A DNA stretch of 64,000 nt, taken from assembly GCA_008632985.1 (NCBI GenBank), contig QPGO01000077.1, forward strand, positions 248,001-312,000, in the 5' to 3' direction. Both the position numbers and the translations under genes were made by a program. Shown one piece after another: positions 14,331 through 61,838 of the stretch. This DNA comes from Psammoneis japonica. Lineage: Eukaryota. A model generated the notes under the pieces. That model made no database searches. It saw only the letters and a list, made by a program, of their open reading frames with translations, and was not told where the DNA came from. Within the stretch, counting starts at the first letter, position 1. Every line of letters starts with the position of its first letter.

Positions 14331-14769
14331 TTCCCATGCTGCACATTTTGCATGCATCCTGTGATGTTGCAGCCAGCTCAGAATGCTGATGGCAGTTGTC
14401 CAGTGCAGTGTGTTTCCAGCCACCCATTGCCAAATGGAATGTGAGATCATGACTTGACAATTGAGTTGATGACCACCTTCTGTGTTGTGGAGAAGTTGTG
14501 GCACCTTGCTTCTGTGTCAACAAAGGAGTTGTTTTCATTCTTTCCCTGGTGCATGTCCATGTGTGTGGTGAGTTTGTGTTCTGCCTCAGCTCCTGAAATT
14601 AAAAAAAAGTCAGCTCAGAGCTCATCAGGCTTGTCTTTTTTGCATTGTTGCATGGCACGGGACAAAACCTGGGCTGGCAACCCATGCTCAAATGCTGCAC
14701 AATGACCCAGAACAAATGCCCTCAATGGAAGTCATGTTTGGTTGATTCAAGACTTTCACAGCTGACAAC

Positions 14770-15976: not shown

Positions 15977-16706
15977 TGCAGCATCACTTGCACTCAGAAG
16001 CAAAATCATAAGAGTCAGGCATGCACCTCTTTCTCATTTGAGTTTGAGGCCAACACATGGCTGCACATTTGCAGTTCACAGTTTCCCTCCCAAGGCATGC
16101 ATCAGTGGCTTCCATGGGAGTTTTGAGTCCTTGAGTGGCAACATGTGGGCACAACCCATGAGGTTTTGTGCACATTTCATTGGGCAAAATGTTTGTCATC
16201 AACAAACAAATCATCGCCTCTGCACAAATGTCGAACTTCCAAACAAGATTTGGGAACTGAGCTGGAGCAGCCAGGTTGACCCAACAGCCCATCTCCTTCA
16301 TTGATGCTGCCATTGTCGCTGTTGCCACTGACACCATAAATGTTTTTTAACACTTAAAGGAGAGTCATTTATTGTGATTCCATTTATCTCTAGGGTCATA
16401 CTTACTTATTGTTATAAGGTCGCTTTGTCACATAGTGAGGGAGGACTTTCTGATCTCAAATTGCCGAGCTCGTACAAACGTACGGTACCGGTGGTACGAC
16501 ACAACTAATAAATGTTCCAAAGCGAACCGCGAACCGAGTCGTCGTCGAAGGACAAAGTTGGGAACAGTAGAATAGAGAGAGTGTAGCTTTTTGGATATTT
16601 TGTTTGACACAAAGAGCGCACTGCTTGCTTGCACATCAGTGGTACGAACCCTCCCCTCTACCTCACTTCTTTTCTTGCGATAGAGCGAAACAACGTTGCT
16701 CCCGAA

Positions 16707-34501: not shown

Positions 34502-34799
34502 GGTGATGAGAAGAGATGGCAGTCAAAATTAAATCAGTGAGACAGATTTCGAACCGGCGGAATCACTAAAATATTTATTGAATCTTAGAGCGCGACTATG
34601 GATAACGAAAACCTTTTCATGTTCGCGCTCTTCGAAACCATAAGTCAATACGGAGTCCCATGAAGAATTCCACGTGGCGAGACCGGCTGGATGGATTTCG
34701 GATCGATGACGTCAACAATTCTGTGAGCTAAAAATGGCGGAAAGCCACAATTTGTTAGCGTGCGAGTTCCGAAGAGCGAGGAGTCTAGACTTGCTGCCA

Positions 34800-42732: not shown

Positions 42733-43641
42733 ATGACGACGGAACTGACTGCATTCTACCTCAAAAGGCTTGGTCTCGCTGACGCCGAGCTGGACGAGGA
42801 CGCTACCGTTTCCAAGCTTTCAACCGTTGTGGAAGCTCATTTAAATAAAATACCCTTTGAAAATCTGGCACAACACGGTGCTGTAGGTGGACCGGTCGTG
42901 TTGGATGTTCCCACCATAAAAGACAAGATTCTTGTGCGGAAACGGGGAGGTTTTTGTCTCGAGCTGAATGGACTCTTTGCAGAGCTCTTGATAGAATGGG
43001 GCTATGAGGTCAAGAGAATTCCTGCTCACGTCTTTGTCAATGGCTGCTTTTCGGACGACCAACCAGCGAGTCACGTCGTGTTGCTTGTGGATGTGCCTGA
43101 ATCCAAATCCGAATCGGAAAGCTCAACGTGGTTTGTCGATGTTGGCTTTGGAGAACCATCCATTCAACCACTCTTTTACGAGGTTGGTGGAATGGAACAA
43201 GAAACGCCGGAAGGAATGATTTCTCGGTTTGTTCACGACGGACCGTTCGTTGTGCTCGAGTGGTTTGTACACGCTCAAGAGACTTGGAAACCGCGTCTCC
43301 GGTGGGAGGCAGACATGGTGGAGAAAGGAGGAGTTGATCCACAGTACTTCCAAAAAGCGCTTGACCATGTCTATCAAGATGAGAGTGCTTTTTCGCAAAA
43401 GATAATTGTGTGTCGCTTGACACGAACGGAGAAGCTATCCTTGGCGGGCTGCAGTCTCAAGCGAACGGGCCCGCCGCGGTTTGGTAAGGACCCGCCCCCA
43501 ACCACAATCACGACGCTTGATTCCATTACACAAGTGAAGACTGTGTTCTGGGAGGAGTTTGGAATGCCAATAGAAGAAACGGAGGGACTCGACTTGACCA
43601 AATCCTTGCAAGCGCCGTCAGCGCTTTGGACACAGATGTAG
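42733..43641 (+). CDS. Arylamine N-acetyltransferase family protein
   Basis: IPFENL, RKRGGFCLELN (Cys), SHVVLLV (His) and FVDVGFG (Asp) give the catalytic triad. Confidence 0.92.
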   Translation: MTTELTAFYLKRLGLADAELDEDATVSKLSTVVEAHLNKIPFENLAQHGAVGGPVVLDVPTIKDKILVRKRGGFCLELNGLFAELLIEWGYEVKRIPAHVFVNGCFSDDQPASHVVLLVDVPESKSESESSTWFVDVGFGEPSIQPLFYEVGGMEQETPEGMISRFVHDGPFVVLEWFVHAQETWKPRLRWEADMVEKGGVDPQYFQKALDHVYQDESAFSQKIIVCRLTRTEKLSLAGCSLKRTGPPRFGKDPPPTTITTLDSITQVKTVFWEEFGMPIEETEGLDLTKSLQAPSALWTQM

Positions 43642-43808
43642 CTCGCCGGAGAGGAAACAAAGGAGGAAGCATGTCACTCGCCTTTCGCCAACAATGCAAA
43701 GATACCAACCTTTATGCTACATTTGACGGGTGGGAGAAAAAGTATACAAAACCATGGAAAATGTGTAACTTCCAGCCTACAAAGCTGCCTACTAATCAAA
43801 AATCTGAT

Positions 43809-44885
43809 TCATGGTTCGTCGTCATCAGTGTCACTACTCTCGCTGTAACCGGGTTGGTATGGATTACAAAGAGGGCATGAAATGCTCTCGTCATCGTCTG
43901 CTTCTACATCATAATCAACAATTCTGGGATCACAGTCTTGGCAAAAAACGTGGCGCTCGTCTGCGCCACACTGGTACCAACACAATTCGCTGTCCTCTTT
44001 GCAGTTGTTGCATTGGATATTTTCACACAGCTCATGATTCGTACATGTTTGAAAGCAACATCCATTATAATAATCATGATCATACGTGAGCTCGCATGCC
44101 CTGCATCCACACGTCGCACAGGTGTAGTATTCGTACACGACGTTATTCGAATATCGGCATTCATGACACTGATGCTTTTCACACACGTGACAAATCATGC
44201 CCTCCGCACAACACTCGCAGTATCGTGCTTTGTGACGATCCGGTCTGGCGCAAATCGCATGGTATTCCTCCTCTGAACCTGCCGCAAAACGGCATTCCAC
44301 GCAGCTTGGATATTCTCCGCACTCTGTGCAAATTTTCACTTGAGCTTCCACCAAAGGATCAGTGCGGAGTATATCAGCTATTTCATACCGTTCATGGATC
44401 AACGCCTTATCCAAAAGACCCTTGACAGTTGCATCGTCGTGCTTGTTCTGATCAAGCAGTCGCCGCATCATGAATTCATCTTTGTACTCGATTGCAAACA
44501 AGAAGAACTCTTTAAGCAAAAGACCCTCCAGAGTAGGATTTTCCAACAGATTATTTGAGAATTGCTCTCGATCGACTTGCTTATAGAGCCGCTCAATGTT
44601 CTCGGAAATCTGCACGTGGTGGTAAACTCCAAATAATTCCCTAGTAAGGATGCAGTTTCGAACTAGAAACTGCCAGTCTATCTCACGGCAAAAGTACCGA
44701 CAGGTTAGTTGGAGAGACGTAATTCTCTCGTTTGCTTCTAGGAAGCTATAAACATGCACGAGAATATCTTTGGTTAAAGTCATGGCTGGAGGCATGTCAT
44801 CATCCGTTTTGAACCGAAAACTACGAGAAGGAGCTTCCGACGGATCATCCTCATCAGTGGCCTTTCTCTTCTTCGCCGAAGACAT
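43809..44885 (-). CDS. F-box protein with Cys-rich (CxxC) C-terminus, copy A
   Basis: LTKDILVHVYSFL...LQLTCRYF F-box pattern and many CxxC pairs. Paralog at 59137-60393. Confidence 0.7.
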   Translation of the reverse strand: MSSAKKRKATDEDDPSEAPSRSFRFKTDDDMPPAMTLTKDILVHVYSFLEANERITSLQLTCRYFCREIDWQFLVRNCILTRELFGVYHHVQISENIERLYKQVDREQFSNNLLENPTLEGLLLKEFFLFAIEYKDEFMMRRLLDQNKHDDATVKGLLDKALIHERYEIADILRTDPLVEAQVKICTECGEYPSCVECRFAAGSEEEYHAICARPDRHKARYCECCAEGMICHVCEKHQCHECRYSNNVVYEYYTCATCGCRACELTYDHDYYNGCCFQTCTNHELCENIQCNNCKEDSELCWYQCGADERHVFCQDCDPRIVDYDVEADDDESISCPLCNPYQPGYSESSDTDDDEP

Positions 44886-44963
44886 TTTCGTTTTTATATC
44901 AAAAGGGAAATCCCGGTAGTAAATCGTTATTATCTTCTTCGAGACAAACTATTTGTCACTATA

Positions 44964-47900
44964 CAATGGCTATCCAGCAGTTCCTCACATCCAGCCACGG
45001 TTACATAATAAGTAGGATTTGTACAGTAGAATTCGTTGAAACATACTGTACGACGTCAGCAAGAACATGTGTCTGGTATGCATCCTACATAATATATACA
45101 GTACATACTACCGTAGGGCTATTGTCAGTACATGCATTACGAGACGACATGATTCACAAGTGGGATGAAAGGAACGTGCCGATCATGAGGATACACTGCA
45201 ACAACACACATCTGTTACACTTGGCAGTAGATCGAGATATGAGGCGTCATAGTCGTACAAACGTCGTATAGTCGTAGTGGGTAGAACCGACTTCAACTAC
45301 GAGATACATCATCGCACATTGAACTTCCACAAGACATCGTTCCCGCTGACGTTCACAACCTCACCGGTGTGATGCCGCTGCTGTTAGCAGCACATCCCAA
45401 TGTAGAGCGCACGAGCGAACGATGACGTGTCAAGCAAATCGAGACGAGCGATCTACAACGTGTCGGGTCCGTCAATCATGCACGGAAGTTTGCTTCAACC
45501 CTCATTTTTCATGAGATCTGAACTTTTGCAAAGGAAGACTCTCCAGCCATCTCGACACAAAGCATCGCCAGTTGCAGCTGAGACAACATCTGCGGGGACC
45601 AGAACACACTGGTCGCAGAGTCTGCAGAGACCGGGAAACACCGGTTGCAGATTTGTCATGTCGCATTCATTGTCATTCATTGCACTCTTGACACACTGAA
45701 GATTCACTGCACACACTCGTCTGCTGAGTCCAGAAAACACTGGAAGTGGACCCTGCAGTGACTGGGAACACCAGTTGCAGGTCGGATTGTCTGCCATCCA
45801 TTGATCACATTGACTTTACTCAGATTGTTCTCATTGCAAGTCTCATGGGTCGTTGTGTCATCTGGTGTGCACCCATTGCTGCGTTGTTGGCTCAACTCAT
45901 CTTTGCGCAGTGTGAGCCTGCCGTTGCAAGCTGTCTCATGGATGACAGCAACACCAGGCACCGAGACAACACAAACAGACGTTTTGAGAAGCTTCATTGC
46001 AGGAATGGAAACGAGTGCGTCCCTTGGGTTTGTTTGGTGTGTGACAGATTGTCAAAACTGTCTCAGACCACTCGACTTTCTGTCAACAAATTGAAAGAAG
46101 CCAGACACCTGTTAACTCCATCTGAATGGAACCAAGTGTCGGAAGACCTGCACGATTGTTGTTGCATCGATGACGACCACATTCCACGGGATTGCCGATG
46201 GATTTCCGACCTGTTGCTTTCGCCAAGAGCTCGACATGTTGTTCCGAACGACAACAGAAGGTCTGAAGGATTCACTTGTTGCAGGCCTTGTAAAAGGAGT
46301 CTCTGCACTGCTTCCATGCCTCCACATGCAACAGCAAACAATTGCTGTTTTGGAACACCACCACCTGAATTATCGTGTCTTGCCGAAGCAGAACCAGCTT
46401 CATTGACACCTGTGAAAACATGTGGCTGCTGCTTCAGTTTTGTCAGTGGCAAACAGAAGAAACCACAAGGCAGTCTTTCCCATTGCAAGATAAACATGAA
46501 GAGCATCGCCCGCACCATTGTGCACTTTGACGTGTTGAACCTTCATCAAAATGTGGTTGTGTTGGCATCCGGCAAAATGACACCAGAGCAAAGGCGAACG
46601 GCCAGACAAAAGAACAAAATCAGGACTCACTGTGTAATGAGAGCACTGGAATGGCTTGTCCATCACCACGAGAATTGGATGAATCAAGACATCGATCTAG
46701 AGGAAGTGCGAAGCAATTTACAGAATCCAGTTTTAGTGGACAACAGCAGCCCAGACGAAAGCGAAAATGCAAACATTGAAACCACGGAGTCCCACAGTGT
46801 TTGTTTCCCCGATGGTGCCGTTTCTTCAACAACTGGTGGACAACGTAATTTAGACAGCTTCAAAGACTTGGTGCACGATGCAGCTGCAAGCGGTTTTGAC
46901 ATTGAATTCAAAGCTGATCTTTTGAAAGAATCAGTCAGTGACTTTAAGGATGACAACCTGGCAAATGCTTGCTTGCTGCAATTTCCTTGTGGGCGTGGCG
47001 GCATTGATGAAACAAGAATGAAAGAAGACGGGAGTCTCGCCGACTGTGCAAATCTAGCACATTGCGCAGATCACTTGGCCCGCATTTCTCAGCCCCATTT
47101 CCACAAGCAACTCTTTGTTCTGACCCTGTGCAATCTGACTGTGAAGCAACGAATGGTGCACAGTGCTGGATGGAAAGCAAGAGACAAAAATCAAGCCAGA
47201 CAATTCTCAAATGAACTGACACAAGACGACGTCGACCGTGCCACATGTGACAGACAGACTGGTGAACGCAGGAATTACGCATTGGGACATCGTTTCTTAA
47301 GTGCAGTGGATGTGGTGTCGGCATCTATTCCATGTGCAAATGAAGCAGCAAAAAAAATGAGAAGAAATGCTGAAACCTGCCAACACCACTTTGGACAACC
47401 TGGAGTGTTTTTGACGACAAGCCCCGATGATGCCAACTCCTTTTTAGTTCAAATTTGTGCGGACATGCTCATCGACAAAGGCAGAGATGTGACAGAAATG
47501 TCGGATGAAGAATTGGCAGAAAAGGCTAAGGCAAGAAACGAGCTTCGTGTGGAGCACCCAGGTGTCACGGCTTTTGCACTCGAAATGTCATTGGAAATCG
47601 TCATAGAAGAAGTGACAGGATGGGACTTAAAAAGGAATTCACCCAGAGAAGATTTTGAATTCTACGTGGGGAGACCCTCCGCTTTCATAGCTGCAATGGA
47701 AGAACAAGGTAGACTCTCGGCACACGGTCACATTCAGGCATGGTTTGAAGACACAAACACAGCAAGAGACAATCTGCATTCTGACAACAGAGATTTTAGG
47801 CGTGATGGTAAAAGAACACTGTCCAAACTGACCAGTCGGATCTGCACAACTGGGTTGACATGCAGCGAGGATTGCACTCGACTGTCCATCATAGAGACTT

Positions 47901-49324
47901 TTGATCATGATTGCACTGTTAATCTTGCCTGTTGCACTGTGCCTAAAACAGTCAGTAATCAGCAGCTTCGATGCCCAAGGCACAAGCACGGTCAGAAATC
48001 AAAAAACGGCATGTTCGCGCATTGCCCTCATTGTGCTAAATGCTGGACAAACCCAGAGTTTGTGGCATGTCATTTGTTGAGTAACAACCGCGTCCCTGGT
48101 CTGACTGCTTGTCCAGACAACACAACAAAGAGACTTAAAGCCATGTGTGTTCAGTGTCAACAATCCGATGAGAATGGGACAATCGAACCATGTGTTCCAG
48201 ATGCTGCATGCAGCCATCACATGCATGCTAACATCGCTTGTTTTTCTAAGCTGAAACAATTTCCAAAAAACAGAAAAAATTCCGAGAATGAAATGACCAC
48301 TGGCAGAAGCGCGCGCAAGCGTAAATTGCACGAGATGCAAAATGCCGATTGCCGTTTCAATCTCCCCGCCGCACACAGTAAAACAAAAGCATCGATCCAC
48401 CCACCTTTTCGCTCAAGCCTGAGTCTTCCACTTTCAAAGCCTGTCCAAAGGACCCAACCCAACAGATGACAGCTGAAAAAAAAGAGAAACACATGCTCAG
48501 ACTGAAAGTGACCCAATTGCCATTCATGACAAACAATGCGACTGCAGGACACAAGCTTCAAGGAAGCGGTGTCGACAATGTGTTTGTACATGGCTGGAGC
48601 TGTGCACAAAACTGGGCATGTGTCATGCTCTCCAGGGTTAAGACCAGAAATGGTCTGTGTCTTCGGCAACCGCTGAAGAGAGATTTAAGTCTACACAGAC
48701 TGCCGGATGGGCACAACGCCCTGCTCCGGTTGATGGAAGGAAAAAGTGTCACACACTTCACCAACGAACAGTGTGATGACATTTTGCAGTCCAATTAACA
48801 CATGGAACATTTTGATGCTGCATGTGGGAATTGTTTCTACATTTTGGAAAATGTTCCAAGCTTTGCACGCGGGCTTGCAGGTGTGCCCGGCAACAACCGA
48901 TAGAAAACAAAGGGTCCAATCTAACAAATCGATGTTAGCACATTGTTGCAATGACAGACACACTCAGCAACCAGTGATGCACAACGTCAGGACAGTTCTC
49001 TTGTCATCTGCTATAGAACGATCGCACCAGAATTGTCAAAAAGGGGAAACCCACGTCTCTTCTTACAATGCATCCACACACGAATGCAAGAATTAAATCG
49101 CCATTTTTTGACACAATGTTAAAACATAAACATGGAATTACGTCGCACATTAACCAATTGCGAACCCATCATTTAAGCGTGAGAATTTTTTAAAAAAATG
49201 ATTGGTGGCAAGCAAAGATCAAAGCTCTAAAATTTGATGCTCGCGCGCATGGCAATCCAAACCAGCCCGGGTTCCACACCTCCTCACTTCGTGTCCAGAG
49301 TTCCTGCCACAAAGGAGGAACCAA
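44964..49324 (+). mobile_element. Internally deleted Helitron-like element
   Basis: Absent from the duplicate copy (empty site cactaTAgcaact near 60470). Encodes a Rep/helicase relic. Has a 3' hairpin gttcct-N10-aggaac just before the end. Confidence 0.85.
45746..48798 (+). pseudogene. Helitron RepHel relic (DUF6570-like region, HUH Rep and PIF1 C-terminus; helicase core deleted)
   Basis: Motifs LQFPCGRGG, FGQPGVFLTTSPDD (motif 1), EEQGRLSAHGHIQAW (HUH), CRFNLP, and QLPF...ATAGHKLQG...ACVMLSRVKT (PIF1 motifs V/VI). Confidence 0.85.
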
Positions 49325-49790
49325 TGGCAACTTCCGTGGCGATGGGACGCAGGAAGCTTGCTTGTGACAGACACCAGCAGTGGGAGTGTTGCGAGTTTTG
49401 TTGGTTGCACAGCAGTTGCGAATGGCAGCACGAAACCCGGAAAATGTTGCACGGATTCCATCATTGCGACTGTGATTCTGCTCTAATCTGAAATCTAGCT
49501 CTGGCTGGTCTCTAGAGTTGCGCTTGGAGCCCAGTCAAGAAGGAACAAAATGACTCGTCGCTGGGACCCACCCAAAATAGAAGTGTGTGATGAGCCATTT
49601 GAATGGCTGAAACTGATTCAAAGAAATGCTTGTGTTTGGCCAAAGAAAGTCAACTGATCGACAATGAACTCTAACTGCATGTAACGCGCCGTGTTTGTCA
49701 CATCCACCATGCCTGCACACACGGAACAATCACCTTCATTGTCAATCACAAGGTGTCTGTCCCATCACACGCATGCTCTTGAGCTCGATG

Positions 49791-50306
49791 TTACATCATG
49801 ATGAAGAAGGATCCAAAACCCAAAAGGACAGCAGCTGGCACATGGTGAGTGCGGACAGCGCCAACTCCGGAAGCATCCAAGCATGAGTGGGAAACTCCAG
49901 ATCCAGGACCACAAACATCCGGACGGGAACACCAGGCACCACACTGCTGAGCACAACGAATGGGGTTTGGAGGGGTCACGCTCAGATTAGGGCAACTGGG
50001 ACATTTGCACGAGGAAGCGTCATCGCAGATCTGATCCAATGTCGGAAGCGTTGTTGGAGGAGTGCAACAATCGAATTGCGAGCCCGCACTGTTCCCGCAA
50101 TTTTCGACGCAATGCGCATTGCATTCGACACTGTTATCACTGTCAGTGAATGGCTCGACAACTTTCGTCACATCGCAGACCTCTTCTGAACTGTCAGAAG
50201 AACAGAAACATGTTGTGGCAAATCCACTTCCATTGTCGGAACAGTTCTGTCCCTTGACATCGACAAAGAATGCAGAGAGCAACGACAAAGCAACAACGAT
50301 CTTCAT
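49791..50306 (-). CDS. Small Cys-rich secreted, possibly GPI-anchored protein, copy A (hypermutated, Tyr-free)
   Basis: Signal peptide and hydrophobic C-terminus. Close paralog of 60936-61454 with all four Tyr changed to His or Cys. Confidence 0.7.
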   Translation of the reverse strand: MKIVVALSLLSAFFVDVKGQNCSDNGSGFATTCFCSSDSSEEVCDVTKVVEPFTDSDNSVECNAHCVENCGNSAGSQFDCCTPPTTLPTLDQICDDASSCKCPSCPNLSVTPPNPIRCAQQCGAWCSRPDVCGPGSGVSHSCLDASGVGAVRTHHVPAAVLLGFGSFFIMM

Positions 50307-50631
50307 GGTCAACTTCTTTGGATGCTGCCGAAGTAACAGGTGTCAAGTAAACAGCTCAGAACTGCCAAGTCAGAAAAAGTGTATGTCTTTGATGAGCAAC
50401 TTTGAGATGGTGAGCGCGATCTTTTCACTCGCGCGAGAGATCAAGATGGCGGGAAATATTCACAGGGCAATACATATATTCAATTATGGGGTTGTTGTTA
50501 TAAAGAACGTCACAAGTTGAAGTTGTCAACGACAAGGCAATTTGAGTTTTCGAAAAATTCGATCTTGCTTCATGCAAAGGTTTTCTATGTAAGGTTCACT
50601 TTTGCGGTTCGCCCTCGCCACAACAACAACA

Positions 50632-53313
50632 ATGGGCAACTCCGAATCCACGCGTCCGTTAGAACAGTGGACCAAAGACGATGTGGCTAATTCTGTCGCG
50701 TCGTTGGGTGGACCAAAGTACAAGGAATACGCGTCTTCAATTCGCGATTCCGGAATTGACGGCGGTCTCTTGACCTCCCTGGAGGACAAGAGCGAACTGG
50801 AAGACATGATGGACGAGTTGGAGATTTCGTCCAAGATTCATCGAAGAGTGATTGCGCGAGCACTGGAGTCGTCACTTGAGGATCATCAAGAAGAAACTGA
50901 CAAGGATACAGCAGCTATCACTGCTGTCGAGACGACGTCCAAGCAAGTCGTGCCGGATTTTTTGGCTGCAGAAGAGTACGGCTTGACCGCCTTTACGCCT
51001 GTTTCCGAGATGCATGAGTTGGATGGACTCTCCCAACAACTCTTGCGATCCAATTCCAACACGAGTTATGCCGGCGTCCACTTATGTCGAACTGACGGGA
51101 TGCACGTATTGTGTGGAAACCTGCGTGGACCGAATGGACAAGTCACGCCTATGGATCGAGGGAAAATTATGGACCATGGACAAAGTTTTTGTTCTCAATT
51201 GGTGCTGGACAAGTCGAAAGATTTTGTCATTCGTGAGGCAACGCTTGAAGCATATCGTTCCATTGGATCCACCTATGTGGGCCACGTTCTCAAAAACGAA
51301 AACGGGTCAAGGCTGGGTGTGCTGTGTCAATTTACGACAGACTCGTTTCACGAGAGCCAACGATACGCAGAGTCCCTGCGACTCGTGTCTGCCGAGATTG
51401 CAGCGATGATGGAACAGCAACTCCGGCTGCGAAAACAATTACTCGATCGAAACAAGTCTCTTTCAGAACAAATTGAGACATCCAAAAAGGAATACATGGA
51501 CATGGTGAGAAATCAAGAGCAGGTTCAACGACAAGAAGACATAGCTAAGAGCGAATCACGTTCAGTTGAAGACCCATGTACGAACTCGAACTTGTTGCCG
51601 TTTGTCGCAAAGTCCCATCTGGCGTCCGAGTTGGAACGGGAGCACATTCCTGTCTCGGTTGACAAAGAGGCGTTTCTTCTCGGCATGCCAAAGCCACCAA
51701 TTGGAAAAGACGATATGGCTCGCGTAGCCAGGGTGGAGGCCTTGGGGTTGCACAATATCGATCCAAACTCGGCTATGGCCAAGCAGCTCAAAGGATTGAT
51801 TGCCCGGACGTGTTCCTTGTTTGGATTTCCGATCGTGACTATTACGATTCACAACCACATGCATCAATTTTGCTTAGGCATGATTGACAGTGGCCTTGGC
51901 ATCATCGACGTCATGGACGTAGTCAACCGTGATGTTGAAGGAACACCGTTTTGTTTGGCATATACACGGGGCGTCTCCGCCTGCAACTACACAATTCTCA
52001 AACGACGCACTTTTATGGTACCCGACATGAGCAAGGACGAAACGTTCAAAAATTACGGCGCCACGACAACCAGTCCATTGCGTGCCTATGTTGGTACCCC
52101 AATAATCTCTTTTGACGGATACGTTGTGGCTGTGCTTTGCATGCTGGACTCGGTTCCTAGATACGATTTCACAAAATCTCACGAATTGGAAATTGAACGA
52201 ATGGCTCTCCTCGTCACACAGAGTATTGAGAATTGGGAGCATCGTCGCCTGATGGATCAACTCCTAGAAGAACGTAAGCTTCTTGAACAGCTCAAAAGCT
52301 CCATGGCGATGCAGGCAAGCAAAAAGCGCGAAGCGCCATCTGGCGAGGTCACAATCGTACTAACGGATATTCAGGGCTCGACAGCGTTGTGGGAGGCTGA
52401 CGCTGAAGCCATGAAGGAAGCACTGATCCTTCACGATCAAATCATCCGAAAATGCGTCTCTCAACACAGTGGCTACGAGATCAAGACTGAAGGTGACGCA
52501 TTCCATTTGGCATTTCATGATCCCTTGGACGCCATTGGCTTTGCCCTTCAGGCTCAGATTGACTTGTACAAGGCGAATTGGTCCGACAATATTCTTGCCT
52601 TGCCCGATGCAGACGTCGATGGAGACGGCTGTTTTCGTGGCCTTCGTGTTCGGATGGGTATACACCATGGCAGCGCCACGCCACAGATCAACGAAGTCAG
52701 TGGGCGTGCATTATATTCTGGGAAAACGTTTCGGGTAGCCAAGAGTGTGGAGGCTCTGTGTTTTGGTGGACAGATACTCGCAACGGCCGAAACTTGGCGG
52801 GTTGTTTCTGAACTGAGCGAACAGTTGGGAACTCCTCAGGTAGTCGATTACGGAGAGTACATACTCATGACGGGTGAATTCATTGACGAAGGTATCATTG
52901 CAAAGGGGGTGGTACAGTTGGTTCCAAACGAGTTGGCGTATGATTACTTTAGTTTGACCGGGAGCACTGGTAGTAGCCAAGAGGCGCTAGGGTCATCAGC
53001 AGCAAGAGGACGGAGATTTCCGCAGGTCAAATCGACTCGTAGACTTACTTCATTGTTCCTGGATGCGCCCAACAACAATGGAGCAGTTACCATGCTGTTT
53101 GTTTATCCATCGGGGACCGATGACTTTCCTGATGACTTGGCGGACCGGACGCTTTCGATACTGACAAAAGTCGTCCGATTGCCAAGCAGGAGCAACTCCA
53201 TGCAAAGGATGTGCCACTCCCTGCCATCACATGCCATGGTCCCAGACATCATGATGCAGAGGGCATCATGCACCCTCATGCACTGGCACTCTGAGCATGA
53301 GTTTTGCCAATGA
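50632..53313 (+). CDS. Myristoylated SAM-GAF-GAF class III adenylate/guanylate cyclase, copy A; truncated near 53175 by an insertion
   Basis: MGNSES; SAM (WTKDDVANSV...IDGGLL); GAF (CNYTI...FMVPD...YVGTPI...VLCMLD); cyclase (VTIVLTDIQGSTALWE, KTEGDAF, VRMGIHHG). The last about 45 aa are TpA-free foreign sequence. Confidence 0.88.
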   Translation: MGNSESTRPLEQWTKDDVANSVASLGGPKYKEYASSIRDSGIDGGLLTSLEDKSELEDMMDELEISSKIHRRVIARALESSLEDHQEETDKDTAAITAVETTSKQVVPDFLAAEEYGLTAFTPVSEMHELDGLSQQLLRSNSNTSYAGVHLCRTDGMHVLCGNLRGPNGQVTPMDRGKIMDHGQSFCSQLVLDKSKDFVIREATLEAYRSIGSTYVGHVLKNENGSRLGVLCQFTTDSFHESQRYAESLRLVSAEIAAMMEQQLRLRKQLLDRNKSLSEQIETSKKEYMDMVRNQEQVQRQEDIAKSESRSVEDPCTNSNLLPFVAKSHLASELEREHIPVSVDKEAFLLGMPKPPIGKDDMARVARVEALGLHNIDPNSAMAKQLKGLIARTCSLFGFPIVTITIHNHMHQFCLGMIDSGLGIIDVMDVVNRDVEGTPFCLAYTRGVSACNYTILKRRTFMVPDMSKDETFKNYGATTTSPLRAYVGTPIISFDGYVVAVLCMLDSVPRYDFTKSHELEIERMALLVTQSIENWEHRRLMDQLLEERKLLEQLKSSMAMQASKKREAPSGEVTIVLTDIQGSTALWEADAEAMKEALILHDQIIRKCVSQHSGYEIKTEGDAFHLAFHDPLDAIGFALQAQIDLYKANWSDNILALPDADVDGDGCFRGLRVRMGIHHGSATPQINEVSGRALYSGKTFRVAKSVEALCFGGQILATAETWRVVSELSEQLGTPQVVDYGEYILMTGEFIDEGIIAKGVVQLVPNELAYDYFSLTGSTGSSQEALGSSAARGRRFPQVKSTRRLTSLFLDAPNNNGAVTMLFVYPSGTDDFPDDLADRTLSILTKVVRLPSRSNSMQRMCHSLPSHAMVPDIMMQRASCTLMHWHSEHEFCQ

Positions 53314-56300
53314 AGACTGGCAAGAAATGTGCCCACCAAGAGGTGAAGAACTTGATGGGAGTGCATTTGGGCAGGCTTGCACAAGCCCAACTGCTCAACA
53401 GTGATGATCAAGGTTCTGCACAATCAGTTCTCCCTGTGAGCCCATCTGCCATGTCACTTGCTGGACCAGAACTCCAGACCTGCTGATGAACCCAACAACA
53501 GTGCCAATCAAGGTGGCAGCCAGTGCTTGGTGGAGCTGGCAGCAGAGATCAGCATCATGAGCTGGGAGCTGCTTTCCCACCATGCATTGTTTTGCACCTT
53601 GAGCCACTCATGTGCCAGCAAAGCCACTCACAAGATTTGCCTTTTTGCATCATCCAAAAGGCATGTGCTTTGAGAATCATGAATGTTGTGGAGCCCATTG
53701 TAACCTGGCATTGGGCTGTCAATTTGCTGGATGACTTGCCTGGCTGCAGCCCTCACCTGCTGACTTTGTGTGACCCACACATCAGCAGTGCCCACAGAGC
53801 TCAGCAAATTGGGCAACCCAGCAGATGAGAAGGTGTGAAACTTTTGCACTCTTTGGGCTGAATCCAGTTGGCAAAACACCTGCACAGGGAACCCCACCTG
53901 GCAGGGAATGTGAGCAAGCTGTGACATCCAGCCACTGGGCTGTTGAACAGCCTGTGCACTGATGGAGCCCAAGCCCTGTTTGCTGCTGAAGACTGAGCCA
54001 CCATCAACCAAGACTCTGGAGGCTGTTGATTGCAGCAGCCATCTCTCCACTGACAACCACTTGCAGTTCCTGGAGGCAGACATGGCAGATTTGATCTAAA
54101 AATGCTGCTGGGTCATCCCATCTCACTGCATTGCCAAGATTCCTCCACATCTGTGGACTGCGGATGTTGCCCGAGTGGGTGTGGTGCCTCCTCAACAAGA
54201 CCAGCAACCATGCACCACAGTTGACTGCAGCTTTTGTGGCCTCAATGATGAGACTGAGATTTGCCCCCCCCCCCCCCCCACACACACACACACAGGAGGC
54301 CCTGCAATTTGGCCATGCACAGGACAAAGATGTTTGCCAAACTGGGGGGGCCAGACCCATGGCGAACACTGCATGGCACACCACAGATCTTCAACTTGCC
54401 TCTGACTCCACTGCATGCACTGGAACAACAACCCATCTTCCAATCATGTCAAGCCACTGCCCATCCAAATTGTGTGCCAGGCACAAGCCTTGGTCTGCAC
54501 CTCTCCCAGCGACACCATGTGCCATTGTCAACCCAGCCTGGGTCAGCCTCTTGCACTTGCTGCACCCCAGCAAAGACTCCAATGGCAAGGACAACACCCC
54601 CTGGTTTTTGCAGATGCATGAAACCTCTCATTGGATGGTCAATGTGTGACCTTGACTGCCTTTTCTTTGCAACACACAGCAGTCTGACCTTCAAAACACA
54701 AAAGTGCAGAGAGAGCACTCTTGAGATGGTTGGCCACAGCCAGAGCTCCCATCCCAATGCACCATGCCCAGTTTTGTGGCACTGGCATGTCAGGTCCACT
54801 GCTTTTGTTTGCTGGGTTTGAGCTCACACATGCAATGCATGGCCAGCTTTGGCGCTGTTGACACCACCAAAACCCATCCCCAGCCAATGGCAGGACACAC
54901 CCCTGAGCAGCGTGGGTGGCAATCAGCAGCTGCAGCAGAGAAGGACCAGATGTGCAACCCCAACCACAGCCTTGAATGGAATGGATCGCTGTGGCAGCTG
55001 CAATTTTGACCCACTGCTCCTGCCCTGTTTTGCTGGAGGTGGCTCTGACTCCAAGAAGCTTTGCCAACCCTGGCAAAAGAAGCTGCTGGCAGTGTGCCAC
55101 CCCCCAACACAGTGGGGCCCACTGCCAAGCAGGGTGGGTGGGCAGTTGGCTTTGTTGGGTTGCAAGCCAGTGGCATGAAACTTGCAAGCAGTGTTTGAAA
55201 TCCTCTCAGCCAACATGCATGTGTGGCAGCAGTGTGCACCAATTTGCAGCATGTGGTCTTCTTGCAAGGTGCTCAGTCCTGCCTTTGTCAAATGCTTCTC
55301 AGGACTCAGCAAGGCTTTGTGGTTTGTGCCACAGCAAAAACTGCAGACCAATGCAATGATGGCACGCCAACACCAACAACTTTTTCTGGCTGCCATGCAC
55401 ATGTTTGTTGCATCCAATTGGCAATTGCACTTTATCCACATGCAGGCAGCCTAACTTGTGCATGCTGGATGCAGCCAATTTGATGAAATGGTGCCAAAAT
55501 AAATCAAAACATGAACAAAGCATTTGAAAATTCAACAAAGCAATTGAGTGTGTCATCTCTTGCAGGGCACTGGGCCAGTGCTTTCCATTTGGTCATTGAG
55601 TTGAAGCTCCAGTCAGTTTGCAAAAACAAAGATCTCTTGGTGACACAGATGGACAGCAAGTTGAAACAGCGTGAGCATGCATCCCTGACAGACCTTGTCA
55701 AAAATGTCTTGGGCAGCTCAAGAACTCACAAAAAACTGATTGTCAAGTGTGAACCTGCCAAGAACAACAAAAAGAATGGAGTCACTTGACTGGCAGGGCA
55801 GCCAATGAGTGGACAATGAGACACGGGGCCATGGCACCACAGCTGTTGGCTCTCTGCACAAAACACCAACTGTTGCAACAGCCAGAGAGTGAGCCCACTG
55901 CAGTCAACACCAACAATCTTAAATTGCAATGCCTGGGGCAGATGCACTTGTGAAAAATGTGTGCGCTTCTCTTTTGAGCATTGAACAATCTGTTTTCTGA
56001 CCTGTGGCAAGAGTTGCTTGCCACACTCTGCATTGACACAGCTCACTTGTTGCCAGCTGATTTGAGAAGCAGAGAGCAGAGCAGTGTGCATTTGATGCCA
56101 AGTCTCAACAGAATTTTGTGCATTGAAACATGGCCTGTTTCCCATTGAAAATTTCCATTGTGGACCAAGGAAATTTTTTGAGTGACCAAAACAAGATTGC
56201 AAAGAATCATGTGGCTTTTTGACAAACCAAGCATCTTTCTCACATTTTCTTTGACAGCAAGACTTGCTTCTTTGTGTCAATTGCTCTTCTTTTTCTTCTT

Positions 56301-58480
56301 TTCTTCATGCTCCACATCTTCTTGAGCAGTGTGCACTTCTTCTTGTTTGTCATCATCAGCCAATTGTTTCGTGCTTTGAGAGGTCAAGCCACCACCCACC
56401 AATTTGTCCATGTCTCTCCACTCTCCACCACAAGGCTGATGGCATGCAAATGAACAACTGACAACTTGTTCCAAGTTGTGCAGTTTCTTGGCTGCTTTCA
56501 AAAAAGGCCACTTGCCATGAAAAAGACAACAAAGACACACAAGCCATTGTCGGTGCAATTGCTGGTGTGATTTCTGGGGGATGCAGGTGCACTTCAGCAC
56601 TGCCATGCTGTGATGAACACAAACCCCAACTGCAGCAGAACAGGACAGAAACGTGGACAGGAAACTGTCAGCAGTTTTTGGTTCTCAGGGGTGCTGCCTT
56701 GCTCAAAGCCCTCTCCATGTGAGTGACAAAGATGAGCAGAACAATGAAACAGAAGAGCAGCATGACTCAACTCCAACACAGAGCAAAAGCAGGGATTGGG
56801 AGGTTTGCAAAGCACAAACTTTGTTCACAACCATCAAAGCCACCACCATTTGCTTTCAATCAAATGACACAATGAAATTCTCCATCGTGGCAAAGACTGA
56901 CAAAAATTGCCGGTGCTGCTAAAAGGATCCAGAACAGTGTGCAATGGCTGCTCATGGTTTTTCATGTTGATGTCTGCTGATGAATTGCAAGAATGCATGC
57001 CTGAATGAGTGTCTTGCACAAATTCATGGCTGATGGTGCATGCTGTGCAAAAAGCTCCTGTCTGTGCAGCACCTCACATTGATGTGCTTTGGGGGCAGAT
57101 GACAGCTTCTGTCTTCAATTGGTGGGGGCACTTTTTAAAAAAAATGATTGTTTTAAATTTGAGGGGCAAGCTCTGAATTTGATTTGATTGTCATCTTGAA
57201 ACACAAAATCAGTTGTCACTTGCACTGTCATGGGTCTCACCAGTTTGTTTGCTCTTGTTGTCAGACATGCTTGTCACATCTCACACTCCTCAAATCAAGG
57301 TGCTGGTCTCAGCCAGCAGTGGTGCACCATGTCAGCATCCTCCTTTTGCACTTGTGCTGGTCCTTGGCTTTGTTGCTGGAACAAATGTCACACATCAACC
57401 AGAAAGCTGTGCACACTTGGTTGAGAGATTTGCTGCCAAAAAGAGAGAGTGCAGCATTTTCAATTTTCCTGGAAAAATGCAGCATGCCTGTGCAACACCA
57501 ACTCATTGCCAGAGTGGCACTTGCACATGAAGAGAGAATGAAGCATTGCAGCAGTGTCACTTGCATGGCATGATTGAAAGCCAGTCAACAACACTCCATG
57601 GTCTGATTGAGAACCAGTCAACAACACTTGCCCTGATGTTTCTGGTTGCTGAAATCATTGCTGCCAGACAGCTCAACACATGCCACCCAAATCAGCTGCA
57701 TGATTGAGAGATCAAGCAAGTGGGTTCATGCCCATTTGCACACTTCACTGTCCATTTGCACAATGCTGGCACCATGGGACAGCTGACAAACCATGCTTTC
57801 ATCATGGAGCAGGGCATTGTGATCACCTGCTGGCATTTGTGGCATGTGATCTAAAGTTGATGTTTGGTCAAACACCTCAACCAAAATGGGCTCAACTGTG
57901 AACACCTGTGACAAAAAAATGTGGTGACAAAAAGTCTGTTTTGTCAATGTTTTGTGCAAGCCAATGCCCTCATCTGCAAGTCTGACCAAGTTCTCACATG
58001 CATGCATCACCTCAAAAACAAAACAGGTGCAGGTGTTTGAGCAAGCGGGGCACTTGGTTTGAAACAATGAAGTGGACAAGACTGCACCACCTGACCACAC
58101 CAAGTTTGTCTGTGAGCAGTTTCTTCTTGGCCACTCTGCCTTTGTTTGGATGAAAGCTTTTCCTCTGCTCCTGGCAAGTTGCGTGGAAGCATGATTGCAG
58201 TTGGGCTGCATCCTGACAGATGCTTCTGCATCATGTCATTTGTGACCACTGCAGCAGCGTTTTTGTGTCATCAGCTGCAAGGATGAGAATCTTCTCTGTC
58301 AATGCTGCCAGGACACCTTGTTCGAGGAGACTTTGTCTTGTGTGTGTCTTCCACTTCCATGTGAAAGAAGGAGCAACAACAGTTTGGAAATGACCCGTTG
58401 GCTGTTGGTGATGCTTTGAGTTGCATGGGGTCGTGGGCACCACAGGTGACAGCAGGCGCAGGGTCTAGAGTCCTCAGTCG
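53176..58480. mobile_element. About 5.3-kb heavily TpA- and CpG-depleted insertion (degenerate TE or nested TEs)
   Basis: Abrupt composition switch inside the cyclase ORF. Only a few TA remain, mostly YTAA. No domain confidently readable. Confidence 0.6.
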
Positions 58481-58659
58481 GAGCCATGATGATGTGGTGT
58501 TGGGTTACAGAATGTAATGGCGAGATGGCGGGAAATGTGAATACAAACATTTAGTCATGCGGCAACGATTTTAGTCATTCGAAGTTGTCAACTGTCAACG
58601 ACAAGGCGAATTGATTTCGAAAAAAATGATGGTGAGGATCTTGCGTCTCTGTTCAGCCA

Positions 58660-59000
58660 GTGGTTTGTTCACGGCTAAAGACGTTTGGAAACCGTGTCTC
58701 CGGTGGGAGGCAGACATGTATGGTGGAGAATGGTGGAGTTGATCTACAGTACTTTCAAAAAGCGCTTGACCAAGTCCATCAAGATGAGAGTGCTTTTTCG
58801 CAAAAGATAATTGTGTGTCTCTTGACATGAACGGAGAAGCTATCCTTGGCGGGTTGCAGTCTAAAGCGTGGCCCGCCGCGGTTTGGTAAGGACCCCCCAA
58901 CCGCGAAAGGAGTTTGGAATGCCAATGGAAGAAACCGAGGGACTCCACTTGACAAAATCGTTGCAAGCTTGGAAAAAACGTAGAGCGCCGAAGAGAAAAC
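58660..59000 (+). pseudogene. Decayed 3' fragment of arylamine N-acetyltransferase
   Basis: tggaaaccgtgtctccggtgggaggcagacatg...atcaagatgagagtgctttttcgcaaaagataattgtgtgtc matches 43259-43640 with frameshifting indels. Confidence 0.88.
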
Positions 59001-59136
59001 AGAGGAGGACGCATTTCAGTCGTCTTTAGCCAACAATAGGAAGTTACCAACCTTTGTGCTGCATTGACGGATGGGAGAAAAAGTATACGAAAACATGGAA
59101 AATGAGTAACTTCCAGCCTACAAAGCTGCCCACTAA

Positions 59137-60393
59137 TCAAAAATCTGGTTCTTCTTCTTGGCATGCCCGGCATGGTCTTTCGTCATAAGCGTCACGGCAT
59201 GGTTCTTCGTTATCGGTGTCACTCTCGCTGTAATCGGTTGGGCAACAAAAACTGCAGATAATATGTTCAGGATTGATTGGGCATTTGTACCAGTCCAAAG
59301 GTCCATCCCGCGTATTGAGAGTTGTTGCGCCGCATCGGAATGCATAATAGCATTCACGCAAGCACCTCCCACGACAAGCAGGGCATGCAATGCTCTCGTC
59401 GTCGTCTGCCTCTACATCATAGTCAACAATTCTGGGATAGCATTCTTGGCAAAAAACGTGTCTATCATCTGTGCCACACTGGTACCAACACAATTCGCTG
59501 TTCTCTTTGCAGTTGTTGCATTGGATATTATTACACAGCTCATGATTCGTACATGTTTGGAAGCAATATCCATGATAAGAATCGTCATCATACATGAACT
59601 CGCATGCCTCATTTCCACACGTCGCACAGGTGTGGTATTCGTACACGAATTCATGAGAATCTCGGCATGCCTCACACTGATGATTTTCACACACGTGACA
59701 AATCATGCCCTCCGCACAACACTCGCAGTATCGTGCTTTGTGACCATCCGGTCTGGCGCAAATCGCATAGTATTCCTCCTCTGAACCTGCCGCAAAACGG
59801 CATTCCACGCAGCTTGGATATTCTCCACACTCTGTGCAAATTTTCACTTGAGCTTCCACCAAAGGATCAGTGCGGAGTATATCAGCTATTTCATACCGTT
59901 CATGGATCAACGCCTTATCCAAAAGACCCTTGACAGTTGCATCGTCGTGCTTGTTCTGATCAAGCAGTCGCCGCATCATGAATTCATCTTTGTACTCGAT
60001 TGCAAACAAGAAGAACTCTCGAAGTAATAGATCCTCCAGAGTAGGATTTTCCAACGGATTATTTGAGAATTGCTCTCGATCGACTTGCTTATAGAGCCGC
60101 TCAATGTTCTCGGAAATCTGCACGTGGTGGTACTTTCCAAAAAACTCCCGAGCAAGGATGCAGTTTCGAATCAAAAACTGCCAGTCTCTCTCACGGCAAA
60201 AGTACCGACAGCTTAGTCGGAAAGACGTTATTCTCTCGTTCGCGGATAGGAAGCTATAAACATGCACGAGAATATCTTTGGTTAAAGCCATGGCTGGAGG
60301 CATGTCATCATCCGTTTTGAGCCGAAAAGTGCGAGAAGAAGCTTCCGACGGATCATCCTCATCAGTGGCCTTTCTCTTCTTCGCCGAAGACAT
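59137..60393 (-). CDS. F-box protein with Cys-rich C-terminus, copy B (longer C-terminus)
   Basis: Paralog of 43809-44885 with about 60 extra C-terminal residues. Confidence 0.72.
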   Translation of the reverse strand: MSSAKKRKATDEDDPSEASSRTFRLKTDDDMPPAMALTKDILVHVYSFLSANERITSFRLSCRYFCRERDWQFLIRNCILAREFFGKYHHVQISENIERLYKQVDREQFSNNPLENPTLEDLLLREFFLFAIEYKDEFMMRRLLDQNKHDDATVKGLLDKALIHERYEIADILRTDPLVEAQVKICTECGEYPSCVECRFAAGSEEEYYAICARPDGHKARYCECCAEGMICHVCENHQCEACRDSHEFVYEYHTCATCGNEACEFMYDDDSYHGYCFQTCTNHELCNNIQCNNCKENSELCWYQCGTDDRHVFCQECYPRIVDYDVEADDDESIACPACRGRCLRECYYAFRCGATTLNTRDGPLDWYKCPINPEHIICSFCCPTDYSESDTDNEEPCRDAYDERPCRACQEEEPDF

Positions 60394-60935
60394 TTTCGTT
60401 TTTATATCAAAAGGGAAATCCCGGTAGTAAATCGTTATTATCTTCTTCGAGACAAACTATTTGTCACTATAGCAACTTCCGTGGCGATGGGACGCAGGAA
60501 GCTTGCTTGTGACAGACACCAGTAGTGGGAGTGTTGCGAGTTTTATTGGTTACACAGTAGTTGCGAATGGCAGTATGAAACCCGGAAAATGTTGCACGGA
60601 TTCTATCATTGCGACTATTCTACTCTAATCTGAAATCTACCTCTAGCTAGTCTCTAGAGAGTTGCGCTTGGAGCCTAATCAAGAAGGAATAAAATGACTC
60701 GTCGCTGGGACCCACCCAAAATAGAAGTGTGTGATGAGCCATTTGAATGGCTGAAACTGATTCAAAGAAATGCTTGTGTTTGCTCTAAAGAAAGTTAACT
60801 AATCGACAAGGAACTCTAACTGCATGTAACGTGCCGTAAGCATCACATCCATCATACCACACACACGGAACAATCACCTTCATTATTAAATCATAAGGTA
60901 TCTGCCCCATCACACGCATGCTCTTGAGCTCAGTA

Positions 60936-61454
60936 CTACATCATGACGAAGAAGGATCCAACACCCAAAACGACAGCAGCTAGCACATGGTGAAAGCGGA
61001 CAGCGCCAACTCCGGAAGTACTATCCAAGCATGAGTAGGCAACTCCAGATCCAGGACCACAGACATCCGGACGGGAACACCAGGCACCACACTGCTGAGC
61101 GTAGCGAATGGGGTTCGGCGGGGTCACGTTCAGGTCAGGGCAACCGGGACATTTGCACTCGGAAGCGTCATTGCAGATTTGATTTAATTCCGGACGCGGT
61201 CCTGGAGGAGCGTAACAATCAAATTGCGAGCCCGTACTGTTGCCGCAATTTTCGACGCAATACGCGCTGCATTCGGCACCGTTGTCACTGTCAGTGAATG
61301 GCTCGACAACTTTCGTCACATCGCAGACCTCTTCTGAACTGTCAGAAGAACAGAAACATGTCGTGGTAAATCCACTTCCATTGTCGGAACAGTTCTGTCC
61401 CTTGACAACGAGAAAGAATGCAGAGAGCAGCGAAAAAGCAACAACAAACTTCAT
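60936..61454 (-). CDS. Small Cys-rich secreted, possibly GPI-anchored protein, copy B (unmutated)
   Basis: Signal peptide MKFVVAFSLLSAFFLVVKG, Cys-rich core, and a hydrophobic tail after SGVG. Confidence 0.75.
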   Translation of the reverse strand: MKFVVAFSLLSAFFLVVKGQNCSDNGSGFTTTCFCSSDSSEEVCDVTKVVEPFTDSDNGAECSAYCVENCGNSTGSQFDCYAPPGPRPELNQICNDASECKCPGCPDLNVTPPNPIRYAQQCGAWCSRPDVCGPGSGVAYSCLDSTSGVGAVRFHHVLAAVVLGVGSFFVMM

Positions 61455-61838
61455 GGTCGACTTGTTTGGATATGATACTGCCGAAGTAACAGGTATCTGG
61501 TAAACAACTCAGAACTGCCAAGTCAGAAAAAGTATCTTTGAGATAGTGAGCGCGATCTTTTCACTCTCTGGCTTCTCTGTCTTCTTCCGTACCACTTACA
61601 GACCTCCCAGTTGGGAGTGCTCTCTGGCTGGCACGAGATCAAGATGGCGGGAAATAATCACAGGGCAATATATATATTAAATCATGAAGTTGTTGTTTTA
61701 AAGAACGTCACAAGTTGAAGTTGTCAACTGCAAGGCAATTTGAGTTTTCGAAAAATTCGATCTTGCCGCACTCCGTCTTATTAATACACTACTTACTGTA
61801 CTTGCAGAGGTTCACTTTTGCGGTTCGCCACAACAACA

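Follow-up and report, generated by a model that had tools for sequence, protein, structure and literature searches.

TpA-directed hypermutation has probably acted on one copy of a tandem duplication after a Helitron-like element had inserted there, and has overrun the element into a neighbouring host gene. Both duplicates, copies A and B, lie in the stretch of DNA analysed here, which at its full length of 64,000 nucleotides is referred to as the window. According to this model, a tandem duplication would have given rise to copies A and B, a multi-copy Helitron-like element would then have inserted into copy A, and A:T to G:C transitions on either strand would subsequently have turned TpA into CpA or TpG over a tract of ~5.1 kb at ~45306-50411. 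This tract is not co-extensive with the element: the first 340 bp of the element are spared, and its 3′ end is overrun by 1.09 kb, through a gene for a Cys-rich protein and up to the upstream region that this gene shares with a cyclase gene. The kind of hypermutation itself was described very recently; what is new here is a clean and internally controlled overrun, together with tract edges that are sharp and offset from the element.

Results

A Helitron-like element interrupts one copy of a tandem duplication

The window consists of eukaryotic nuclear DNA with a GC content of ~48% and carries ordinary genes, e.g. for Vps35, UTP25, ClpP and a zinc-dependent alcohol dehydrogenase. It also contains a gene for a low-complexity repeat protein, a 407-aa minus-strand frame with 12-nt and 42-nt tandem periodicities (24853-25457 and 24100-24390) and a weak PT-repeat match. 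Comparison of the window with itself by BLAST revealed a tandem segmental duplication. Copy A comprises positions 43259-44963 and 49324-52793, interrupted by an insert, while copy B comprises positions 58659-60471 and 60469-64000, where it runs off the window. The spacing between the matching positions of A and B falls from ~15.4 kb to ~11.15 kb across the insert, and reading of the junctions placed an exact empty site in copy B at 60471/60472 (TATA|GCAAC), with colinear flanks on both sides. The background divergence of the two copies is 4-7%, and outside the tract described below the rest of the 9-kb duplication is unmutated. The left arm of copy A (43259-44963, matching 58659-60471) is not hypermutated: transversions make up 68 of its 142 substitutions, and its TpA changes, 6 A-derived versus 12 B-derived, show no significant bias. 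Seven of these 12 B-derived TpA losses are within ~800 bp of another depleted block (53180-58453), as compared to two A-derived losses there, which was likewise not significant.

The insert (44964-49326, plus strand) is present in copy A only and measures 4360-4363 bp, as a 3-bp ATA/ATG overlap with copy B leaves its right end ambiguous between 49323 and 49326. Helitrons are defined by the absence of a target-site duplication, by 5′-TC...CTRR-3′ ends and by an A|T target. At the insert, there is no clear target-site duplication, although the 3-bp overlap exists; its ends read CAATGG...CCAATG and its target reads TATA|GCAAC. The ends of the insert may themselves be mutated. One Helitron characteristic, a protein with a Rep (HUH) domain, is encoded by a 913-aa open frame (45728-48469, plus strand), in which Pfam identified DUF6570 (E 1.2e-10) and Helitron_like_N, the Rep domain (E 1.5e-9), both above the curated cut-offs. 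Helitrons can be recognised in addition by a Pif1-type helicase fused to Rep, and Pfam detected no helicase family in the 913-aa frame or in a 138-aa frame downstream of it. This Helitron copy is probably truncated.

In the contigs of run X1, the summed word depth amounted to 700-2600 over the insert versus ~80-140 over both flanks, and to ~100 from the bin at 49401-49700 onwards. Such depth serves as a hint and not as a copy number, and the contigs may be of the window's own sample; what it hints at is a multi-copy element beside a flank that is not multi-copy. One X1 contig joined 44963 to 49327, with a shorter side of only 30 letters, and was not counted as bridging. At 45605/6, 46401/2, 47047/8, 47333/4, 47613/4 and 47616/7, the run contigs also include copies of the element with TG in place of the CA found in the window, or the reverse. 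These differences imply that one and the same ancestral TpA was struck in separate, independent events, which affected opposite strands in the different copies.

The tract of TpA loss has sharp edges that do not match the ends of the element

The TpA-depleted tract (45306-50411, ~5.1 kb) starts ~340 bp inside the insert and ends ~1.09 kb outside it, as judged from a hidden Markov model (HMM), the TpA positions and a change-point analysis. The three-state HMM, applied to YR dinucleotides, returned one continuous depleted block at 45473-50411 that spans the end of the insert; the depletion in this block is partial, with 68 TpA and 181 CpG left. By contrast, the TA-rich 5′ part of the insert (44964-45305) escaped TpA loss, as ~35 TpA are present in these 340 bp and only 3 between 45306 and 45816. 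The spared first ~340 bp and the overrun of the 3′ end together show that the tract is shifted relative to the insert. Furthermore, the overrun is one-sided, since the left flank of the insert shows none. The 5′ 340 bp have a high summed word depth in run X1, and other contigs of this run carry deletion variants of them (45076/45080 to 45205). This segment might be a later insertion, in which case the left edge of the tract would simply be the end of the element.

Copy A was aligned with copy B, and every aligned dinucleotide was scored. Between 49324 and 50420, 34 of the 42 TpA of copy B were CA or TG in copy A, whereas the reverse, TpA of copy A being CA or TG in copy B, applied to 2 of 10; this directionality (34 versus 2) was highly significant (binomial p 1.9e-8). 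In the unique host flank of copy A (49327-50411), 34 of 42 ancestral TpA were thus converted to CpA or TpG, a count that includes site 49325 inside the ambiguous 3-bp junction and becomes 33 of 41 without it. Over the next part of the duplication (50421-52793), the corresponding figures were 5 of 65 and 2 of 66. Maximum likelihood placed the change point between 50408 and 50457 (34/42 before, 5/65 after; LR 64), in the divergent intergenic region that separates the Cys-rich gene from the cyclase gene. An earlier note on this DNA had placed the end of the element at about 49324 and had TA loss continuing past it to about 50420, which is well matched by an insert end at 49323 or 49326 and loss to 50408. 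It had also proposed a chromatin-like spreading that decays with distance. However, the conversion per bin was 12/14, 9/12, 5/6, 4/4 and 4/6, then 1/8 and 0/12, and within the tract itself no trend was detected (Spearman rho -0.03, p 0.85). This profile, a plateau at ~80% followed by a cliff, contradicts a decay. When an asymmetry of the A/B type was sought in three other paralogue pairs beside other depleted blocks, none was found (13 versus 11, 16 versus 10 and 6 versus 9).

On the far side of the right edge lies copy A of a gene for a protein with SAM, GAF and adenylate/guanylate cyclase domains (50632-53313, plus strand; Pfam). Over the 720 codons for which copy B allows a comparison, this gene shows no hypermutation, and TpA conversion in the cyclase region was 0-3 per bin. 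The word-based protein search returned one match for the cyclase (P0001, 33% identity). Homology to P0001 ends at ~53124, ~55 bp before the depleted block at 53180-58453, and the C-terminal second cyclase-like domain of P0001 has no counterpart in copy A of the gene, the 3′ end of which was either cut by the element or mutated beyond recognition. The last ~45 residues of the cyclase ORF, which ends at 53313, come from depleted sequence. The run contigs also contain a third and more diverged paralogue of the cyclase region (50653-52815), about 82-86% identical on the compared pieces; it would be a natural outgroup for the A/B comparison.

The right edge of the tract is ~25 bp away from a 62-bp indel at 50431/50432, which copy B has and copy A lacks, and which could instead be a recombination junction. 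Two alternatives make use of this coincidence. Firstly, the 1.09-kb flank could be part of a longer mobile unit, in which a Helitron ran past its terminator and took host DNA with it, so that the flank was mutated as a repeat and 50411 is a de novo 3′ end. Capture by 3′ read-through is known for Helitrons, and a sharp right end, a uniform conversion and an indel at the edge would all suit such a unit. We nevertheless regard it as improbable, since copy B has the same 1.09 kb in a colinear arrangement without the element, at an exact empty site. Moreover, the summed word depth, taken as a hint only, drops from ~1100-2600 to ~100 at 49401 and stays at the level of the flank, and only two versions of the ORF were found in run X1, the A-type and that of one other contig. 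The same empty site, colinear copy B and (as a hint) fall in depth speak against the objection, anticipated in the earlier note, that the segment belongs to the Helitron.

Secondly, ectopic gene conversion or recombination could have pasted an already hypermutated tract from another paralogous locus into copy A. Both edges are sharp, the right one adjoins the 62-bp indel, and a third, more diverged paralogue is present in the run contigs. However, a donor would need to carry this element next to this flank, and the overrun would then have had to occur at the donor locus. The third paralogue is only about 83-86% identical on the cyclase, and outside the TpA sites the divergence of the A flank from B is ordinary. 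Such a transfer is therefore, in our view, very improbable, and we retain the reading that the tract arose by hypermutation of copy A itself.

Both strands are struck, and TpA loss is separable from CpG loss

The converted TpA in the flank comprise 19 TA>TG and 15 TA>CA changes, interspersed in 15 runs (~17.8 expected; the runs were counted by hand). Since the two types of change alternate along the tract, both strands must have been struck, in many independent events. Between 49324 and 49790, changes from TA in B to CA or TG in A accounted for 22 of the 37 substitutions; there were 3 more CA/TG double changes and only 5 transversions. The observed/expected ratios (o/e) in the A flank were 0.17 for TA, 1.50 for CA and 1.65 for TG, with a GC content of 0.492 versus 0.473 in B. 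Twelve TpA are left in the A flank, as compared to 46 in its counterpart in B. CpG showed no directional loss in the flank (9/55 versus 6/49, not significant), which makes the loss of TpA separable from that of CpG.

A wider sequence context was not required for conversion, but TTA and TAA were struck less often. Surviving TpA are in TTA or TAA in 26 of 29 cases in the fully depleted blocks of the window and in 43 of 59 cases in the Helitron body (45306-49326), whereas in normal sequence these contexts account for 655 of 1718 (Fisher p 1.6e-8 and 1.8e-7, respectively). This suggests that the process prefers V-TA-B. The TAA stop codon of the Cys-rich ORF in copy A is among the surviving TpA.

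Two other causes were considered and rejected. Selection or codon usage would not account for the tract, because 21 of the 34 conversions are outside the ORF, and a single, kataegis-like event of single-strand exposure is incompatible with the interspersion of TG and CA changes.

The Cys-rich gene of copy A is recoded

The gene that is overrun encodes a Cys-rich protein on the minus strand (49791-50306; 171 aa, 18 Cys, 0 Tyr), with a signal-like N-terminus and a hydrophobic C-terminal tail. Its paralogue in copy B (60936-61454, minus strand; 172 aa, 16 Cys, 4 Tyr) is close to the ancestral state. The two proteins are identical at 140 of 172 positions, and their codons differ by 31 non-synonymous and 11 synonymous changes and one deletion. 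Nine TA-loss events are located in the ORF, eight of which are non-synonymous: T30A, Y65H, T74A, Y81C, Y118C, Y140H, S145A and L158P. TpA loss thus explains 8 of the 32 amino-acid differences, including the loss of all four Tyr and the gain of two Cys (16 to 18), and L158P puts a Pro into the C-terminal hydrophobic tail. This was in full agreement with two claims of the earlier note, namely that hypermutation leaves the mobile element and recodes a Cys-rich host gene, and that all four Tyr of copy B are changed in A, each in the residue context that it had described. The dN/dS ratio of the Cys-rich pair was 0.69, as compared to 0.17 for the adjacent cyclase pair. In the flank, which is otherwise 9% different, 92 nt at 49547-49638 are identical between A and B; this stretch is located ~150-240 nt downstream of the stop codon of the Cys-rich ORF and may be a constrained 3′-UTR element, or due to chance.

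Run X1 contained, at the ORF, the A-type sequence plus only one contig with other letters, at a depth of 49.7 out of 86.1. In run X2 (of the kind 'DNA?', with very uneven contig depth), there were no contigs over the element, the depth was 1046 B-type at the ORF and 153 B-type at the cyclase, and no A-type contig was present there; a gap in the cover of such a run is no evidence in itself. An exact 35-nt pattern from the ORF had no match in metagenome contigs.

Pfam returned no family for the Cys-rich protein, an atlas search gave no lead, and a word-based protein search found no close homologues. An exhaustive HMMER search yielded 14 distant homologues with 34-45% identity. Across 13 sequences, 13 Cys columns are invariant and 2 nearly so, and copy A keeps all of them. 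From these sequence features, the protein appears to fit a secreted or GPI-anchored Cys-rich family, as yet unnamed.

Eleven of the 14 homologues were aligned with A and B, and at seven of the eight recoded sites they share or resemble the residue of B. Specifically, position Y65 is Y or F in 9 of the 11, Y118 is F in all 11, and Y140 is Y or F in 10, while Y81 is Y in 4 and never C; at T30, S145 and L158 the homologues also favour B. T74A points the opposite way, with Ala in 10 of 11. When all 32 A/B differences were considered, the state of B was the commoner one among the homologues at 15 sites and that of A at 4. The polarity of non-coding sites rests on composition. The TA o/e of the A flank (0.17) is below the minimum (0.28) of 352 overlapping normal windows of 1085 bp, the median of which is 0.56, whereas that of the B counterpart is 0.62; in addition, the A flank directly adjoins the TA-poor element. 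Judged by flank composition and homologue residues, copy A is the derived copy.

Pairwise comparison alone is symmetric, and the Ala that 10 of the 11 homologues share with A at position 74 would suit the opposite polarity, with copy A ancestral and RIP-like C-to-T changes giving copy B its TpA from CpA or TpG. We consider this highly unlikely. The TA o/e of B is typical and that of A is below all 352 normal windows; 81% of the TpA of B would have to be new, yet only ~1/6 of the CpA and TpG would have been struck; B shows no RIP-like AT enrichment (GC 0.473 versus 0.492); and the recoded residues favour B as ancestral at seven of eight sites. Furthermore, the depleted blocks in the window and the data reported for Bigelowiella natans (10.64898/2026.01.13.699255) reveal a process that removes TpA rather than making it.

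An artefact of assembly or base calling, with modified bases in silenced DNA being read as transitions at TpA and CpG, can hardly be credited. Some long-read base callers do make systematic transition errors at modified motifs, and no library type is recorded for the runs. However, in run X1 (longest contig 315 kb, word depth ~36-50 per copy) the contigs repeat the A-type sequence at the ORF positions, and a systematic miscall would not give element copies with CA versus TG at one site. In addition, the de novo TpA mutations in B. natans were, according to the preprint, called from Illumina data (10.64898/2026.01.13.699255).

The loss of conserved residues suggests that hypermutation was harmful to copy A. 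The lost Tyr are aromatic in the homologues, and none of these has a Cys at the two positions of Tyr-to-Cys change; on the strength of these alignments, the changes at aromatic positions are likelier to be damaging, and damage is a likelier outcome than innovation. The route to rapid paralogue divergence envisaged in the earlier note is thus unproven, given that the Tyr lost at positions 65, 118 and 140 are aromatic in 9-11 of the 11 homologues and that Cys is absent from both Tyr-to-Cys positions. As that note had observed, the ORF of copy A is open, at 171 aa. However, of the 90 single signature mutations (TA- or CG-type) that are possible in the ORF of B, not one gives rise to a stop codon, and this ORF is free of CGA codons. 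The open frame of copy A therefore says nothing about selection.

Other depleted blocks in the window have also lost CpG

Five blocks with TpA loss were detected in the window, with CpA plus TpG nearly doubled and GC unchanged, and four of them have lost almost all TpA and also almost all CpG. Besides the tract described above, the HMM delimited blocks at 2122-4041, 11699-16335, 34792-36329 and, between copies A and B, 53180-58453; the last one has 10 TpA and 22 CpG left in 5.3 kb. The o/e values of the blocks were 0.0-0.1 for TA, ~1.8-2.1 for CA+TG and 0.0-0.45 for CG. A Pfam search with 36 frames from the four other blocks returned only a sub-threshold match to RVT_2 (Copia-type) at 15488-15973 (27.5 bits, below the cut-off of 31.6). 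At 4688-5586, 899 consecutive N, an assembly gap or masked stretch, adjoin the block at 2122-4041.

TAA and TAG together are about ten times rarer per kb in the depleted blocks, where 47 were counted in 13.4 kb versus 1475 in 43.5 kb of normal sequence (both strands). Owing to this scarcity, heavy mutation has left long open frames in existence, the 913-aa Rep frame among them, and spurious genes may be called by gene finders in depleted blocks.

Discussion

Together, the plateau, the cliff, the spared 340 bp, the unmutated remainder of the duplication and the CA-versus-TG states of the element copies point to an action in place on a bounded domain. The same five observations argue against a simple action that is limited by homology or decays with distance. 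Targeting may thus depend on a domain, and repeat homology alone would not direct it. Such a domain could be a block of silent chromatin with promoters as its boundaries, or a unit of read-through transcription with its start within the element. A read-through transcription unit could feed an RNA guide, and it fits as well as a silent-chromatin block. Sharp edges that do not match the ends of the element bear on this question, as they favour a domain or a transcript over homology. The chemistry may be adenine deamination in TpA of DNA, as proposed for B. natans (10.64898/2026.01.13.699255), with thymine oxidation as an alternative. The loss of CpG in the older blocks is presumably a separate, slower process.

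We infer that copy A of the Cys-rich gene is a casualty rather than an innovation, and that its frame survives by default, because the spectrum cannot create stop codons. The TpA spectrum recodes Tyr to His or Cys, and Ile to Thr or Met. It is a tentative idea, and one that we put forward with some reserve, that hypermutation is aimed at a chromatin or transcription domain, overruns to the next promoter and acts as a frame-preserving recoder that could occasionally give rise to fast-diverged paralogues of surface proteins. The locus represents a natural experiment, in which a paralogue with an exact empty site reveals changes that arise in place: hypermutation also strikes a DNA transposon, and it is able to pass beyond the element and recode a host gene next to it. 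It further illustrates a collateral cost of genome defence, since conserved aromatic residues are replaced in a host surface protein while the frame stays open. Gene predictors and dN/dS scans would misread such copies, in which aromatic residues are lost and the reading frame is open.

Several known systems share some of these properties. Methyl-CpG deamination accompanies the decay of silenced repeats. It explains the loss of CpG to TpG or CpA in the four fully depleted blocks; however, it cannot produce TpA loss, and CpG in the flank shows no directional loss. ADAR prefers a 5′ U, i.e. a UA context, and edits many contexts. Like ADAR hyper-editing of double-stranded RNA and the action of APOBEC3 on retroelements, the process seen here leaves clusters of deaminase-type transitions in foreign or repeated nucleic acid. 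Unlike them, it is fixed in genomic DNA (a unique flank and a DNA transposon), confined to TpA and found on both strands, with no strand-coordinated runs.

RIP is a fungal process that is tied to the sexual cycle. It changes C to T, mainly in CpA, and thereby makes TpA and stop codons and lowers GC, whereas here TpA is removed, no stops are possible and GC is slightly up. Fungal RIP was excluded, since the mutations run in the opposite direction and the composition shifts the opposite way (GC 0.492 in A versus 0.473 in B); the duplication is also unmutated outside the tract. A parallel does exist at the level of the genes affected. In Leptosphaeria maculans, 'leakage' of RIP from degenerated transposons into single-copy effector genes was reported, and the closer a gene lay to these transposons, the higher, in proportion, was its degree of RIP (Van de Wouw et al. 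2010, PMC2973834). In both cases, transposon-directed hypermutation enters neighbouring genes for small, secreted Cys-rich proteins and alters their products, but the profile here is flat with a cliff, unlike the proportionality to proximity described there.

The closest match is the system described in Bigelowiella natans (Mettrop et al., bioRxiv 10.64898/2026.01.13.699255). In mutation-accumulation lines of this organism, two integrated viral regions were reported to mutate ~1000x faster than the rest of the genome. Of the 231 mutations in these regions, 230 were A>G or T>C, all of them turning TpA into TpG or CpA, and an ADAT2-like adenine deaminase was proposed as the enzyme. The genome of B. 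natans moreover contains 124 clusters that are poor in TpA, rich in CpA plus TpG, and enriched in reverse-transcriptase and DDE domains (10.64898/2026.01.13.699255). Our literature search for TpA-to-CpA/TpG hypermutation returned no report beyond this preprint, so that TpA-specific hypermutation of DNA has so far been presented in one preprint and for one organism, as a defence against integrated viruses.

The signature in the window is the same TpA-only signature as reported for B. natans. It consists almost only of A>G and T>C transitions, is confined to TpA, and depletes TpA with enrichment of CpA and TpG. As in B. natans, the transitions occur only at TpA on either strand, leave a footprint of TpA depletion with CpA plus TpG enrichment, and also affect transposon-type sequences (with RT and DDE domains in the preprint). 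The effect in B. natans is regional, on integrated foreign or mobile DNA; here, the tract covers most of the insert plus 1.09 kb of host DNA and spares the first 340 bp of the insert. Using figures from the preprint (6e-7 per site per generation, TpA being 3.3% of dinucleotides), ~80% conversion would correspond to ~1e5 generations. This would be far less than the 4-7% background divergence between A and B represents, and if the rate of B. natans applies, the tract may be recent or the process still active.

Four features set the present locus apart from the B. natans report (10.64898/2026.01.13.699255). The target is a Helitron-like element instead of integrated giant-virus and virophage DNA; the tract overruns by 1.09 kb into unique host DNA and recodes a host gene whose paralogue has an empty site; the edges of the tract are sharp and offset from the element; and the older blocks have also lost CpG, with the residual TpA being mostly in TTA or TAA. 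The terms CpG, Helitron, flank, spread and host gene have no occurrences in the main text of the preprint. If our reading is true and the organism is not Bigelowiella natans, TpA hypermutation would be a wider eukaryotic genome defence than this single report suggests.
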